Positions 37,620 to 53,207 of a stretch of DNA of 64,000 bases are shown here, piece by piece. Made by a program: the position numbers and the translations under genes. Numbering within the stretch: the stretch's first letter is position 1; every line of letters begins with the position of its first letter. The DNA is from a virus. The stretch lies in IMG/VR virus record IMGVR_UViG_3300030508_000019; one strand, 5' to 3'. Under the pieces are notes generated by a model, which was not told the DNA's origin, made no database searches, and saw only the letters and a list, made by a program, of their open reading frames with translations.

Positions 37620-37709
37620 GGAAGTGTGGGTGAATGGTTAAACCAGCGGTTTGCTAAGCCGCCGAAGCCTGAAAGGGCTATCCGAGTTCGAGCCTCGGCA
37701 CTTCCGCCA
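37620..37709 (+). tRNA. tRNA-Ser (GCU), type II
   Basis: Acceptor GGAAGTG/CACTTCC. Anticodon stem GCGGT/GCCGC with loop TTGCTAA. Variable-arm hairpin AGCC-TGAAA-GGCT. T-arm CCGAG-TTCGAGC-CTCGG. Encoded CCA. Confidence 0.7.
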
Positions 37710-37741
37710 TAACATCAAAACAAACTTTCTGTGTTCTTAGC

Positions 37742-38191
37742 ATGGACACTAAAATAGTTTGTAGGGAAAAACGGCATCGTTGGGCTAAAAGGCGTAGGCA
37801 AGATCCTAAATTTTTACCTAGCATTATTTGGCGAGATTCTCGTAGCTCAGATAAAAAATTGCTTCGGGAAAATGATCTTGACAAAGACTTTATTAAGGAT
37901 AAAATTAGCAATGGATGTTTTTACTGCGGAGAGACAAAAATAAGGATGACCTTGGATAGAATAGATAATAGCTTAGGTCATTTAAAGACGAATGTCAATC
38001 CAGCATGTATGCGATGCAACTATCTACGCAGGGACATGCCATACGATGCCTGGTTGTTTTTAGTTGAAGGTATTCGTAAAGCCACAGAGCAGGGAGCTTT
38101 TAACGGATGGCTAGGCGGTAACACTAGTAAATATGCTGGTGGGGAAGATTTAATGGACTTCATCGAAGTCGGTGAAGGTCCAGAAGAGTAA
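37742..38191 (+). CDS. HNH endonuclease
   Basis: CFYCGE…LDRIDNSLGH…CMRCNYLR (HNH/AP2-type). Adjacent to tRNA genes. Confidence 0.6.
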   Translation: MDTKIVCREKRHRWAKRRRQDPKFLPSIIWRDSRSSDKKLLRENDLDKDFIKDKISNGCFYCGETKIRMTLDRIDNSLGHLKTNVNPACMRCNYLRRDMPYDAWLFLVEGIRKATEQGAFNGWLGGNTSKYAGGEDLMDFIEVGEGPEE

Positions 38192-38290
38192 AAATTCGCA
38201 GCGGTGTTGCGTACAGTTACTTCGATACCCACTGGGGGAAACCCGGCAGTGGAGTTGTACCAACTGTATGTTTTATGTTCCCTGCGATTT

Positions 38291-38379
38291 GATGACATGG
38301 GGGAGATGGATTAACCCAGTAGCTTGGAAAGCTACCATACCGCAAGGTATCGATCGTTCGAATCGGTCTGTCATCGCCA
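38291..38379 (+). tRNA. tRNA-Ser (GGA), type II
   Basis: Acceptor GATGACA/TGTCATC. Anticodon stem GTAGC/GCTAC with loop TTGGAAA. Variable hairpin ATACC-GCAA-GGTAT. Encoded CCA. Confidence 0.65.
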
Positions 38380-38384
38380 AGTTT

Positions 38385-38471
38385 AGAGAGTAACCAGTGG
38401 GCATGGTAGGTCGCCTCGAAAGCGACTGCTTCTAGAAATAGGGCACACCGGTTCGAGTCCGGTACTCTCTG
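38385..38471 (+). tRNA. tRNA-Ser (CGA), type II
   Basis: Acceptor AGAGAGT/ACTCTCT. Anticodon stem GTCGC/GCGAC with loop CTCGAAA. T-arm ACCGG-TTCGAGT-CCGGT. Confidence 0.6.
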
Positions 38472-38478
38472 CCTTTAC

Positions 38479-38567
38479 CGAGAGATGGGCGAGATGGATT
38501 ATGCCGCCAGTCTTGAAAACTGGTATACCGTAAGGTATCAAGGGTTCGAATCCCTTTCTCTCGGCCA
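38479..38567 (+). tRNA. tRNA-Ser (UGA), type II
   Basis: Acceptor CGAGAGA/TCTCTCG. Anticodon stem CCAGT/ACTGG with loop CTTGAAA. Variable hairpin ATACC-GTAA-GGTAT. Encoded CCA. Confidence 0.65.
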
Positions 38568-38596
38568 ACTTTATGGTATTATCGTAAGGAGTTACG

Positions 38597-38917
38597 ATGA
38601 AGAGAAAAAATAAACCACTGTTGTCCATTGAGAACGCACGAGAATTTAACGCCAAAATAGAGTGGGAAGGAAGTTTGGATTATGTTTTGCAGAACTGGGA
38701 TTTTAAAGAATTCAAAGATAAAAAATTCAATAGTTTGCGAAAAGCGTACATTAAGGCCCACCAGGATATGATGGATTATTGCTATCTGGATAGAGTTCTA
38801 GAAGATACCACCGAACCATCAGATCTCGATGAATCTGACCGCTGCCCTTCTTGTGGAGATGCGCTGGAATTAAACGGTACATGTTATACATGTACGGGTG
38901 AGCAAAATGAGAATTAA
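38597..38917 (+). CDS. hypothetical protein with C-terminal zinc ribbon
   Basis: 106 aa. CPSCGD…CYTCTG. Confidence 0.4.
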   Translation: MKRKNKPLLSIENAREFNAKIEWEGSLDYVLQNWDFKEFKDKKFNSLRKAYIKAHQDMMDYCYLDRVLEDTTEPSDLDESDRCPSCGDALELNGTCYTCTGEQNEN

Positions 38918-39173
38918 GCTCATCGTTAGAAAAAATTTGCACATGAGTGAAAATAAGCAATCCGCTCAATGTGTACATGCAGCTCTAGGGCTTTACAAAA
39001 AAAATCCGCAGGATCATTGGTCATGCGTGGTGCTGGATGCTAGCGATAAAAAATTCGAGGAAGCAAAAGAAGCGCATCCAGAGGGATATGTAGTGACCGA
39101 TGCGGGCTACACGGAAATTCCAGCGGGCAGTGAAACTGTTTTGGCTTTCTATGAGGATGACCCCAGAGAATAA
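38898..39173 (+). CDS. peptidyl-tRNA hydrolase, PTH2 family-like
   Basis: KLIVRKNLHMSENKQSAQCVHAALGLYKK and VVTDAGYTEIPAGSETVLAF match the Pth2 motifs (K…AAQC.HAA; TD.G.T.I..GS.TV). Confidence 0.6.
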   Translation: MSKMRIKLIVRKNLHMSENKQSAQCVHAALGLYKKNPQDHWSCVVLDASDKKFEEAKEAHPEGYVVTDAGYTEIPAGSETVLAFYEDDPRE

Positions 39174-39361
39174 TGCTGATTCATTGTGATCGATGTAAGC
39201 GAAAAGTTGAAGGCGATTTTCACGAAAGGTTTACCTGCGGATTTTACGATGTAAGCTTGGGTTGTTGGAGAAAATACGCCAGGAATTACGAGACCATTAT
39301 TTGCGATGAATGTATGCATGCAGACCCGCAGTATATACAAAATTATGGAGTTACAAGATAG
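39173..39361 (+). CDS. small zinc-ribbon protein
   Basis: CDRCKRK…CDECMH. Confidence 0.3.
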   Translation: MLIHCDRCKRKVEGDFHERFTCGFYDVSLGCWRKYARNYETIICDECMHADPQYIQNYGVTR

Positions 39362-51693: not shown

Positions 51694-51762
51694 GTATTAG
51701 GGGGTATGAGCAGAATGCAAAATGTTTTAGGCTTTTAGACTCCTTAGAAAGGAAGGTAAATT

Positions 51763-52308
51763 ATGGCAGACACTTTAATTCTTGACCAAAACTGGCAACC
51801 ACAGTCTTTTTGTAACTGGCAGAACGCTGTGAAATTGATATATGAAGGGCGTGCTCAAGTTATCAAAGAAGACGAGGGTGGGCGCATTTTACGGTCTCCT
51901 TCTCTGGAATGGAAGATGCCAAGGGTTATTGTTGTCAAAAACGCTTGGGTTCGTAGGAAGCGTTTGTCCGTTCCTTTCTCCAGACGCAACATCGCGGTTA
52001 GGGATAATAGCGGGTGTCAGTACTGCGGTAGGGTATTGAAGACTCAGGAATATACTCTTGACCACGTAATGCCTCGTTCTCAAGGTGGTGTATCTTCATG
52101 GACCAATTTGGTGCTCGCCTGTGTGCGCTGCAACAAGCGTAAGGCCGGTCAGACACCTAAGGAAGCTGGCATGCACTTACTTAAGCAGCCCGTGGAGCCG
52201 AAGAAGGACGATCCGAAGTACAACTTCAAGCTTCACATTAACAAGCTACGGCCAGAATGGAAAGAGTGGGAAACCTGGCTATATTGGAATGTGGAACTAG
52301 AAGCGTAG
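51763..52308 (+). CDS. HNH endonuclease
   Basis: CQYCGR…LDHVMPRSQGG…NLVLACVRCNKRK. Confidence 0.7.
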   Translation: MADTLILDQNWQPQSFCNWQNAVKLIYEGRAQVIKEDEGGRILRSPSLEWKMPRVIVVKNAWVRRKRLSVPFSRRNIAVRDNSGCQYCGRVLKTQEYTLDHVMPRSQGGVSSWTNLVLACVRCNKRKAGQTPKEAGMHLLKQPVEPKKDDPKYNFKLHINKLRPEWKEWETWLYWNVELEA

Positions 52309-52406
52309 AAGCTTTGACACGATCCTTTACGTGTCACATCTGGTCCCGGATGTGCTGACCCAGCTTAAAGGGTAGGGACTACCAATTTATGAACGGAAGT
52401 TGAGCC

Positions 52407-52483
52407 ATCCTCGTACCGGCCTCGTTTCCTAAACGAGTAACCGTAAAGGAGCAATGTGGGTTCGAGTCCCACCGAGGATACCA
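52407..52483 (+). tRNA. tRNA-like gene (candidate Arg-CCU; internal fold ambiguous)
   Basis: 77 nt. Perfect acceptor ATCCTCG/CGAGGAT-A-CCA. T-arm GTGGG-TTCGAGT-CCCAC. Helix CTCGT-TTCCTAA-ACGAG. Confidence 0.4.
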
Positions 52484-52769
52484 GGTTTTTATGTACATCA
52501 AATGCAGCATATTCGATGTGGATTTGGATCATGTATTTGATGAGCTGCTTTTGCAGTTGACAGAAATAACACTTCCTGATACACTGGAACTTGATGATCG
52601 AAAGATAGATAATCAAGAAGATTATAAACTACGAGAGTATTTATTGAAGGCTACAAAATAAGCATTGAAGGTCTTGCGAAAACCAAGCTGGCTAAATCAA
52701 TGCTGGATGTTGCATTCGGGAAATAAGAATTAAGAATTCTCGACGCCTTGGGATACATGGAGTCGTTAA

Positions 52770-52880
52770 ACGACTGCGGACAGTGTGTAAGTCTGGCGAA
52801 AGCCAGCAGCGCTGGTTGAAACAGTTAAGGGCGGCGTTAGCCGCCTAGAATCTCCCGCCTTTAGGCGTGGGAGTATCAAT
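52770..52880 (+). ncRNA. candidate structured RNA (three consecutive hairpins including a GNRA tetraloop)
   Basis: CTGGC-GAAA-GCCAG. GGCGGC-GTTA-GCCGCC. CTCCCGCC-TTTA-GGCGtGGGAG. Lies in a roughly 450-nt ORF-free stretch between tRNAs. Confidence 0.3.
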
Positions 52881-52963
52881 ATGATGGTAATTCTTAACAA
52901 CACGCTCACCACGCTTCACCTCAGACCTAAACGCTAAATTTCCGCGTTCAAAAATCTCTAAAT

Positions 52964-53038
52964 GCCTCTATCGTCCAACTGGAAGGGCACCGGCCTTCTA
53001 AGCCGTGGATCCGGGTTCAAGTCCTGGTGGAGGTACCA
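52964..53038 (+). tRNA. tRNA-Arg (UCU)
   Basis: Acceptor GCCTCTA/TGGAGGT-A-CCA. Anticodon stem CGGC/GCCG with loop CTTCTAA. T-arm CCGGG-TTCAAGT-CCTGG. Confidence 0.7.
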
Positions 53039-53048
53039 AAAATTTTAA

Positions 53049-53124
53049 TGCCCCCGTAGCTCAGTTGGTAGAGCCACCGCCTTTTAAGCGGAGGGTCGCT
53101 GGATCGTTCCCGGCCGGGGGTACC
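53049..53124 (+). tRNA. tRNA-Lys (UUU)
   Basis: Acceptor GCCCCCG/CGGGGGT-A-CCA. D-arm GCTC-AGTTGGTA-GAGC. Anticodon loop CTTTTAA. Confidence 0.7.
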
Positions 53125-53130
53125 AAACTT

Positions 53131-53207
53131 TGGGTGTATCGTCTAATGGCTAAGACCCCGATCTTTTAAATCGGCCGATTTCGGTTCGAGTCCGAATGCA
53201 CCCACCA
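53131..53207 (+). tRNA. tRNA-Lys (UUU), second copy with a different body
   Basis: Acceptor GGGTGTA/TGCACCC-A-CCA. D-arm GTCT-AATGGCTA-AGAC. Anticodon stem CCGAT/ATCGG with loop CTTTTAA. T-arm TTCGG-TTCGAGT-CCGAA. Confidence 0.7.

Follow-up and report, generated by a model that had tools for sequence, protein, structure and literature searches.

Four tRNA islands, long-variable-arm tRNAs and an aspartate-less Thg1-like protein in 64,000 nucleotides of metagenomic phage DNA

tRNA Islands and Translation Genes

We analyzed 64,000 nucleotides (nt) of the virus record IMGVR_UViG_3300030508_000019, and this whole stretch is called the window below. The window carries four islands of transfer RNA (tRNA) genes, together with genes for a Thg1-like protein (TLP), a shortened peptidyl-tRNA hydrolase and a methionine aminopeptidase (MetAP). 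This gene content probably represents a strategy already known from huge phages, in which a private tRNA supply and a few translation enzymes are matched to the codon gap between phage and host. Other metagenomic contigs were compared with the window, and they are named by L numbers (L005, L096 and so on).

The tRNA genes were called by ARAGORN with default settings and then with -ps80, and by Rfam RF00005 at the gathering score; the 233 calls returned by ARAGORN at -ps70 were noise and were not used. ARAGORN found 22 tRNA genes, every one on the + strand, and Rfam found 20, with 19 loci common to both. Three genes were called by ARAGORN only (Ser-CGA at 38385, His at 48452 and Arg-UCG at 49395), and one by Rfam only (52407-52480, CCU anticodon, 36.6 bits). 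The -ps80 setting added two elements, at 39457-39550 (UAU) and 15123-15196, both in DNA poor in open reading frames (ORFs) that adjoins genuine tRNAs. The total is therefore 25 tRNA or tRNA-like elements. The original prediction, made from the sequence by a model, had counted at least 25 such genes in four islands; the automated callers accepted most of its manual calls and, with the relaxed thresholds included, reached the same total.

A canonical cloverleaf with a 7-nt anticodon loop was found above the tool thresholds in 21 genes, of which 18 were called by ARAGORN and Rfam alike and 3 by ARAGORN alone, and the remaining 4 of the 25 elements, at 15123, 39457, 50293 and 52407, are irregular. 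Of the 25 elements, 21 encode the 3' CCA, among them 19 of the 21 regular tRNAs; the Ser-CGA and Trp genes end in CC only, and the elements at 15123 and 50293 encode no CCA. The four islands lie at 14333-15196, 37620-39550, 48349-50780 and 52407-53207. The coordinates given with the prediction, 37620-53207, take in islands 2-4 and leave out island 1 and the Thg1-like and MetAP genes.

In the following description, genes given with a score in bits were called by both ARAGORN and Rfam. Island 1 contains two tRNA-Lys(CUU) genes with encoded CCA (14333-14410, 37.6 bits, and 14861-14936, 69.1 bits). Island 2 contains the genes of tRNA-Ser(GCU) (37620-37709, 54.4 bits), tRNA-Ser(GGA) (38291-38379, 45.4 bits), tRNA-Ser(CGA) (38385-38473, ARAGORN only), tRNA-Ser(UGA) (38479-38567, 52.6 bits) and tRNA-Leu(UAA) (39362-39444, 50.3 bits). 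Island 3 begins with tRNA-Trp(CCA) (48349-48424, 39.3 bits) and tRNA-His(GUG) (48451-48531), followed by tRNA-Arg(CCG) (48987-49064, 38 bits), tRNA-Arg(GCG) (49117-49192, 62.2 bits), tRNA-Arg(ACG) (49198-49274, 32.8 bits) and tRNA-Arg(UCG) (49395-49471, ARAGORN only), the last being a duplicate of the Arg-ACG body with 80% identity. Beyond the Asn and Gln genes discussed in the next section, this island also holds a regular tRNA-Asn(GUU) (50014-50088, 65.7 bits), a tRNA-Lys(CUU) (50444-50519, 55.1 bits) and a tRNA-Phe(GAA) (50705-50780, 50 bits). Island 4 contains tRNA-Arg(UCU) (52964-53038, 51.9 bits) and two tRNA-Lys(UUU) genes with different bodies (53050-53125, 55.3 bits, and 53132-53207, 57.4 bits).

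The six Arg and four Ser anticodons that had been predicted are thus all present. Among the Arg anticodons, ACG, GCG, CCG, UCG and UCU belong to regular genes and CCU to an irregular one; the Ser set (GCU, GGA, CGA and UGA) is complete. The tRNA calls also agree with the predicted Leu-UAA, Trp, His, Asn and Phe genes, the two unlike Lys-UUU genes and the three CUCUUAA loops, which belong to the Lys-CUU genes. The five Lys genes have four distinct bodies. There are two Asn-GUU genes and one Gln-CUG gene, the latter absent from the predicted list. Only 9 amino acids are covered by the 21 regular tRNAs, so the description of the sets as near-complete holds for Arg and Ser and not for the other families.

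The tRNA-His gene has a genome-encoded G-1 (48451) opposite the discriminator C73, followed by CCA, and the predicted bacterial G-1:C73 arrangement was thus confirmed from the bases themselves. In Rfam this gene gave a sub-threshold match to the tRNA-Sec model alone (31.1 bits), which is consistent with an 8-bp (base pair) acceptor stem that includes G-1:C73. The same G-1/C73 arrangement was found in the relatives L097 and L101. In L101, a second tRNA-His (1829-1903) with a 5-bp D stem, a UGGU tetraloop and U73 adjoins the regular G-1/C73 gene, and it resembles the phage (8/4) tRNA-His of Mukai et al.

Islands 2 and 3 are preceded by a direct repeat of 124-150 nt (37384-37535 and 48010-48160, 95-96% identity). 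Each copy contains a sigma-70-like promoter on the + strand. The copy upstream of island 2 reads TTGACA-17-TATTAT (37391-37419; the repeat section 37384-37507 equals 48010-48133 at 96%), and that upstream of island 3, scored on the second repeat copy, fits the consensus at 11/12 positions (48017-48045). In both islands a structured non-coding leader comes next (extending to 37619 and 48348), and a terminator-like hairpin with a U run stands directly ahead of the first tRNA. A Trp-leader attenuator upstream of tRNA-Trp (48243-48345) was considered and rejected: the Rfam Trp_leader match is sub-threshold (26 vs. 41 bits) and the region encodes no leader peptide that contains Trp codons. This match is probably just the hairpin and the U run.

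Protein genes were identified by a Pfam scan of about 70 window ORFs; the MetAP ORF was outside that set and was identified from gene calls made on identical contigs. All the protein genes of this and the next three paragraphs are on the + strand. The TLP gene (12545-13390) lies 0.9 kb upstream of island 1. Its product matches PF04446 at 82.7 bits (cutoff 29.2, E 2.8e-23), as expected from the predicted Thg1-like gene, and its best PDB match is 4KGK, the TLP of B. thuringiensis (BtTLP), at E 1e-46 over nearly the full length. However, in the alignment with 4KGK the window TLP has a gap of a single residue precisely where 4KGK has the Asp of RIDG. The pattern R[VI]DG[RK][AS]FH is present in 119 of the 120 best database family members, and the window TLP alone reads RV-GRAFH; a near-identical relative (P0002) retains RVDGRAFH. 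The window DNA at this site (cgc gtt ggc aga) shows a clean in-frame 3-nt deletion. Because the identical Asp-deleted TLP recurs in 101 collection blocks from many independent metagenomes, it is not an assembly error.

Hyde et al. (2013, PMC3701042) have shown that D30, D75 and E76 of BtTLP correspond to human D29, D76 and E77, and that these carboxylates are essential for activity; D30 and D75 coordinate two Mg2+ ions (PMC3701042). In the window TLP the D76/E77 equivalents are kept (QSDEIS) and the D29/D30 equivalent is gone (ILRV-GRAFH). Thus one of the three catalytic carboxylates is missing and two are present. The original prediction had named a lack of the catalytic carboxylates as refuting it, and in part, for one of the three, this lack is seen. 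With a metal-binding Asp lost, the TLP of the window lineage is predicted to be catalytically crippled, and it is probably inactive as a 3'-5' polymerase.

The two other translation enzymes of the prediction are also encoded. The Pth2-type peptidyl-tRNA hydrolase gene (38898-39173) is placed between the Ser and Leu tRNA genes and, with the start that gene callers give (ATG 38907), encodes 88 amino acids (aa). It matches PF01981 at 46.4 bits (cutoff 23, E 5.4e-12) and has human Bit1 (PDB 1Q7S) as its best PDB match at E 4.8e-6, and its two motifs, AQC.HAA and DAG.T.I..GS.TVL, align with human Bit1 and archaeal Pth2. The protein is shortened, 88 aa against about 115 aa for the fold, and several internal loops and helices are missing relative to all solved Pth2 structures. 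The type-I MetAP (58214-58936, 240 aa, short N-terminus) has T. maritima MetAP (PDB 1O0X, E 5e-35) as its best PDB match, and the five metal ligands (D, D, H, E, E) are aligned with identical residues; PF00557 (Peptidase_M24) was assigned to the identical gene in L008.

Three homing endonucleases of the HNH or Endonuclease VII kind lie in or near the islands. One of Endonuclease VII / HNH type is inside the Ser island (37742-38191, phrog_1035 E 1e-14), an HNH endonuclease is at 46685-47014 (PF01844 E 1.8e-5), and an HNH homing endonuclease separates islands 3 and 4 (51763-52308, PF14279 and PF01844). Island content differs between strains: in L005 and L006, otherwise identical to the window, island 1 (14237-15197, the two Lys-CUU genes and the irregular element at 15123) is missing and a 136-aa ORF stands in its place, and L008 has about 345 additional bases ahead of the Arg-CCU-like gene. 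These differences fit a turnover of islands driven by homing endonucleases, as in the tRNA region of T4 with its homing endonuclease SegB (PMC2330249).

Downstream of island 3, a 271-aa protein (50878-51693, + strand) has homologues in or beside the tRNA clusters of many otherwise unrelated phage-like contigs (L016-L104). It matched no Pfam or PHROG family, its AlphaFold model (pLDDT 73.5) had no PDB match below E 0.1 in a Foldseek search, and an IMG/VR scan with the protein gave a single weak partial match. The family could be a mobile or processing protein associated with tRNA islands.

Irregular Elements and Long-Variable-Arm tRNAs

All four irregular elements lie on the + strand. The first is a UAU tRNA-like element (39457-39550), 12 nt past tRNA-Leu, which was found by ARAGORN at -ps80 and matches the tRNA-Sec model below gathering (27.4 bits, E 0.002). 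It has a perfect 7-bp acceptor stem, a CUUAUAA anticodon loop, the T loop UUCAACU, A73 and an encoded CCA. Its D arm, (G)CAC-UGGU-GUG(C), is a stem with a tetraloop like those of Sec and allo-tRNAs, its variable arm (V-arm) has 4 bp, and its anticodon stem has 5 bp and a C.A closing pair. Two foldings of the element are possible: a 7/5 form in which one U is bulged, and a 9/3 form that contains an A.G mismatch. It is identical in 8 contigs of the same species, and no divergent homologue was found in the more than 100 loci compared.

The second is a tRNA-Arg(CCU)-like gene (52407-52483, Rfam 36.6 bits, not called by ARAGORN), in which the D arm is replaced by CCGG and the variable region has 18 nt; the acceptor, anticodon and T arms and the CCA are intact. 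The third (50293-50363; "tRNA-?" in ARAGORN, Rfam 44.5 bits) is tRNA-shaped, with a 6-nt "anticodon" loop AUUAAC, a mere 4-5 acceptor pairs and no CCA; it is also found in L096, where the loop reads AUUUAC. The fourth (15123-15196, ARAGORN -ps80 only) has a CCGC-GCAA-GCGG hairpin for an anticodon arm, a mismatched acceptor stem and no CCA. On their predicted folds, the last two are pseudogenes or non-decoding tRNA-like RNAs.

A suppressor tRNA was also considered, since ARAGORN labels the 50293 element "Stop|Leu". This candidate was rejected: with code 11 the window is densely filled with long ORFs, and the 6-nt loop varies between relatives. Recoding of the TAA inside a vault-like gene was rejected too, because this TAA is a strain-specific single-nucleotide polymorphism. 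The gene in question (43016-45496), a major-vault-protein-like gene in a phage with MVP shoulder and vault repeat domains, is split in the window by the nonsense change GAA->TAA at 44894, and the 817-aa ORF is intact in all other contigs of the same species.

It may be explained that all four irregular elements are decaying, functionless pseudogenes produced by the endonuclease-driven turnover of the islands, and this explanation is a strong contender, although we stop a little short of preferring it. Two of the elements have no usable anticodon loop or CCA and have mismatched acceptor stems. L096 and L097 carry a regular Arg-CCU gene in the syntenic position, following the HNH gene, and only the 3' part of the window Arg-CCU-like gene aligns with L096. 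The homing endonucleases in and beside the islands, and the absence of island 1 from L005 and L006, point in the same direction. However, in the Arg-CCU-like and UAU elements the 7-bp acceptor stem is perfect, the anticodon and T loops are canonical, and CCA is encoded; AUA is the second most over-used codon of the phage; and the element with the 6-nt loop is kept in L096.

Two genes of island 3, both on the + strand and both called by ARAGORN and Rfam, have a normal cloverleaf with a long V-arm. The first is an 89-nt tRNA-Gln(CUG) (Gln89; 49904-49992, 42.4 bits) with a 4-bp V-arm stem and a weak D stem, and the second is an 87-nt tRNA-Asn(GUU) (Asn87; 49709-49795, 31.8 bits) with the V-arm GUC-GUAA-GAC. 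The regular Asn-GUU gene lies 220 nt downstream of Asn87. Both fall outside the definition of class II tRNAs: the arm is long, but the anticodons are CUG and GUU and not those of Ser, Leu or Tyr. The cores of both were absent from our pattern scans of IMG/VR.

Homologues of Gln89 were found in L096, L097 and L101 through the homologues of the 271-aa protein (75%, 53% and 47% identity). Among the four Gln89 sequences, there were 6 compensatory pairs and no broken pair; 2 of the compensatory pairs are in the acceptor stem, 1 in the V-arm and 3 in the T stem. For Asn87, L096 is the sole informative relative, and its homologue shows one compensatory change in the acceptor stem. The covariation in the Gln family suggests that the V-arm is under selection.

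We extended the comparison to the related loci. ARAGORN made 145 calls there, and 13 of them (12 distinct) were at least 82 nt long and had anticodons of class-I amino acids (Gln, Asn, Lys, Trp, Met, Arg and Thr). Several of these tRNAs were confirmed by Rfam at 48-60 bits. By inspection, 8-9 of the 12 V-arms are short stems with a GNRA cap (GUAA, GAAA, GCAA, GAGA or GUGA). The discriminators of the 12 tRNAs match the amino acid of the anticodon (G for Gln, Asn and Trp; A for Lys, Met, Arg and Thr). Because they follow the anticodon amino acid and are not uniformly G73, the discriminators argue for cognate identity and against capture by SerRS. V-arm and regular tRNAs of one anticodon occur together in the window, L096 and L101. 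A reverse mismatch of class and anticodon was observed in L078, a distant phage contig, where two 77-nt tRNAs with Leu anticodons (UAA and GAG; 2469-2545 and 3495-3571) are without a long variable arm and have Arg-like D arms.

We tentatively propose that this clade of soil phages has a distinct, hitherto undescribed tRNA class, consisting of 7/5 class-I cloverleaves with a short V-arm hairpin, usually of 3-4 bp and GNRA-capped, often beside a regular isoacceptor, with the arm under selection. The D-armless Arg-CCU gene and the UAU and anticodon-less elements may be further members. The V-arm could be a tag by which these tRNAs escape host tRNA nucleases or modification enzymes, or it could be recognized by a phage factor. 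No description of class-I tRNAs with a V-arm was found in the searchable literature; the search was narrow, so that this is absence of evidence only. Such tRNAs would be concrete substrates for studying how synthetases, EF-Tu, nucleases and the ribosome handle an extra arm.

Host, Codon Supply and tRNA Damage

In a megablast search with 37000-54000, no nucleotide match was found among the deposited phages. DNA identical at 99.5-100% was present in more than 100 metagenome blocks, on contigs of up to 178,295 bp, from JGI bog and peat samples, ENA ERZ272... entries and WOOD18 assemblies. Homologues of the TLP at 55-66% identity are on contigs of 413-465 kb, which suggests that the window phage belongs to a clade of huge phages. 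The amino-acid permease (53806-55122) has almost all of its best 80 genomic relatives (50-57% identity) in metagenome-assembled genomes of Acidobacteriota/Terriglobia. These relatives make an acidobacterium (Terriglobia) of peat or bog soils the most likely host.

Several other genes of the window were observed in the course of this work. Host-like auxiliary genes at 1895-2622, 32105-34779, 53806-55122, 57070-58203 and 62709-63647 encode IscA/IscU (Fe-S assembly), an ABC transporter permease and ATPase, the amino-acid permease, an ADP-ribosylglycohydrolase and Ku. A TnpB / Cas12f-like gene (OrfB_IS605 and TNB domain) is located at 10068-11117. In a 168-aa ORF (35769-36275), a 20-residue stretch (EIRAGTGGDEATLF...) matches the PCRF motif of class-I release factors, and the remainder is unrelated.

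We compared the codon usage of the phage ORFs (15.7k codons) with that of 218 ORFs (83k codons) from acidobacterial loci. The GC content is 44% in the phage, with a third-position value (GC3) of 0.40, and 59.5% in the acidobacterial loci. The four highest phage/host frequency ratios were those of UUA (6.4), AUA (4.8), AAA (4.7) and AGA (3.7), and the window has a cognate tRNA for each of them: Leu-UAA, the irregular UAU element, the two Lys-UUU genes and Arg-UCU. The presence of cognate tRNAs for the four most enriched codons supports the codon supply hypothesis. The six Arg and six Ser codons are used fairly evenly by the phage. The agreement between codon usage and anticodons is only partial; it holds for the four most enriched codons and fails for CGC, CGG, UCG and CAG, which the phage under-uses.

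These observations lead to a mechanism in which the four islands with their interspersed homing endonucleases, and the MetAP, the shortened Pth2 and the Thg1-like protein, which are of enzyme kinds that work on nascent peptides or tRNA ends, would form one module of translation support. The tRNAs would be transcribed as polycistrons, at least two of the islands from the duplicated sigma-70-like promoter. Host RNase P would mature them and leave the encoded G-1 on tRNA-His, their 3' ends would be trimmed back as far as the encoded CCA, and the synthetases of the host would charge them. They would then supply UUA, AUA, AAA and AGA, which are used far more by the AT-richer phage than by the GC-rich host, and with the complete Arg and Ser isoacceptor families the phage would depend little on host tRNAs for its protein synthesis late in infection.

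Several points weigh against this explanation. The window has tRNAs for codons that the phage uses less than the acidobacterial loci do (ratios CGC 0.3, CGG 0.3, UCG 0.2 and CAG 0.6), so codon compensation alone is insufficient, and independence from the host pool or a role against host defence must contribute. The host assignment comes from one host-like gene and the sample types. The decoding function of the four irregular elements is doubtful. Finally, every contig sampled still has an intact TLP reading frame, and the protein may have a non-catalytic or residual function. Nevertheless, we regard a private tRNA supply as the probable explanation. The original prediction that the phage rebuilds the host translation system stands as far as the phage's own components are concerned (21 regular tRNAs, an intact-looking MetAP and the Pth2-like protein), and its repair half is not supported for this phage.

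A role in anti-defence is compatible with the private tRNA supply. The phage tRNAs could replace or out-compete host tRNAs cut by anticodon nucleases, and their structural oddities, such as the extra variable arms, the altered D arms and the several bodies for one anticodon, could make them poor nuclease substrates. This would account for the tRNAs that serve the under-used codons CGC, CGG, UCG and CAG, and it is also favored by the redundancy of the islands (five Lys genes with four bodies, one regular and one V-arm Asn gene, and six Arg anticodons) and by the co-occurrence of V-arm and regular versions of one anticodon in the window, L096 and L101. Published phage tRNAs reportedly evade or neutralize tRNA-targeting defences (PMC10264068, PMC11464382, PMC11555353). 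However, the regular tRNAs have anticodon loops of canonical appearance. We regard anti-defence as possible, and clearly less probable than codon supply.

The repair half of the prediction supposed that the TLP and other enzymes form an active toolkit that rebuilds 5' ends, including G-1, after nuclease damage. The TLP belongs to the BtTLP-type family, whose characterized members repair 5'-truncated tRNAs (PMC3061083, PMC3701042). In addition, an intact nucleotidyltransferase of the RlaP family ("RNA repair pathway" pol-beta family; 45773-46606, + strand, PF10127 E 2.4e-18, phrog_388 E 4.7e-46) is encoded 1.7 kb upstream of island 3. However, the metal-binding Asp of the TLP is deleted, in the window lineage only, and because G-1 is encoded opposite C73, the maturation of tRNA-His needs no Thg1 activity.

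A polynucleotide kinase/phosphatase (PNKP) sequence (42035-42313, + strand) covers positions 95-143 of the 143 in the PF25109 profile and 247-295 of the 295 in phrog_505, that is, the last approximately 50 residues. Neither DxDxT nor a kinase P-loop was found in three frames upstream of it, and an intact PNKP was rejected, because three-frame translation gives a C-terminal remnant only. At this relic (41589-42313), the ORFs just upstream have 164, 195 and 224 aa in different strains, which suggests ongoing decay. No RNA ligase family (Rnl or RtcB) was found among the approximately 70 ORFs scanned. With the Asp deleted, the kinase reduced to a relic and no ligase in the scanned ORFs, the gene content does not support the claim that the phage repairs host-cleaved tRNAs, or a working tRNA-repair system in the window phage. 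An active repair toolkit is thus improbable for this lineage.

In relatives the Thg1-like gene is intact and the catalytic Asp is still present, so for the wider phage clade the repair idea may apply. A globally sampled phage population has fixed an Asp-less TLP and a near-identical relative has not, which amounts to a natural experiment. It bears on the question of whether phage TLPs are needed or have a non-catalytic role.

Lastly, we considered mistranslation or recoding, in which SerRS (or LeuRS), and not the enzymes cognate to the anticodons, would charge the V-arm G73 tRNAs with Gln and Asn anticodons and the UAU tRNA. Similar proposals exist for allo-tRNAs, which are known from the likely host phylum, and for nematode V-arm tRNAs. 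Gln89 and Asn87 do have both SerRS determinants, a long V-arm and G73 (PMC5389517), and the UAU element bears a Sec/allo-like D arm and a V-arm. But this reading is very improbable, since the discriminators of all 12 distinct V-arm class-I tRNAs fit their own anticodon amino acid, U1-A72 and G2-C71 are kept as in tRNA-Gln in 3 of the 4 Gln homologues, the V stems have a length of just 3-4 bp, and the fold is of the 7/5 type instead of 8/4 or 9/3.

Comparison with Known Systems

The SDE motif of BtTLP (4KGK; D75/E76) is conserved in the window TLP, as are Arg and His within RxDGxxFH, and the two proteins differ in the Asp equivalent to D30, which the window TLP has lost. T4 repairs tRNAs with Pnkp and Rnl1, and one sequence in the window is related to phage polynucleotide kinase, to its C-terminus. 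However, this sequence is a remnant of about 50 residues without the P-loop and DxDxT, and an RNA ligase was not found in the ORFs scanned. As in the T4 tRNA region with SegB, homing endonucleases are embedded in the tRNA clusters of the window.

Mukai et al. have reported allo-tRNAs from Acidobacteria, peat soils and phages, with UAU as a predominant anticodon (2017, PMC5389517). The UAU element of the window is similar to them in its long V-arm, Sec-like D stem and tetraloop, extended anticodon stem and UAU anticodon, and the likely host phylum and habitat of the window phage also match. It differs in its discriminator, which is A73 and not the G73/U73 of Ser identity, and its geometry is ambiguous with respect to the defining 8/4 or 9/3. 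Gln89 and Asn87 are not allo-tRNAs; they are plain 7/5 cloverleaves with ordinary D loops.

By the textbook rule, class II in bacteria is confined to the tRNAs of Ser, Leu, Tyr and Sec, and the V-arm class-I tRNAs challenge this rule. Hamashima et al. reportedly described nematode "nev-tRNAs", which are V-arm tRNAs with Gly or Ile anticodons. The tRNAs found here resemble class II tRNAs and nev-tRNAs in that their variable region forms a stem-loop while the rest of the cloverleaf is normal. However, their anticodons are those of Gln and Asn in the window and of Lys, Trp, Met, Arg and Thr in the relatives; their V stems have 3-4 bp and are mostly GNRA-capped; and their discriminators track the anticodon amino acid.

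Al-Shayeb et al. have shown that huge phages carry up to 67 tRNAs, other translation genes and genes for the repair of cleaved tRNAs (2020, PMC7162821). Homologues of Thg1 are annotated in 162 deposited phage genomes, including those of XacN1 and of Bacillus, Caulobacter and Prevotella phages. The overall picture of the window would add one more, probably acidobacterial, example of this well-documented strategy, and it is unsurprising in itself; the parts that merit follow-up are the covariation-backed V-arm class-I tRNAs and the TLP, which a natural deletion has probably inactivated. Like the Xanthomonas phage XacN1, Bacillus phages and the Prevotella "Lak" phages, the window phage combines clustered tRNAs with a Thg1 homologue, and its tRNA sequences are unlike those of the host and are accompanied by tRNA and translation enzymes. 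It differs from these phages in that its Thg1-like gene has lost the codon of the catalytic Asp and several of its tRNAs have a non-standard architecture.

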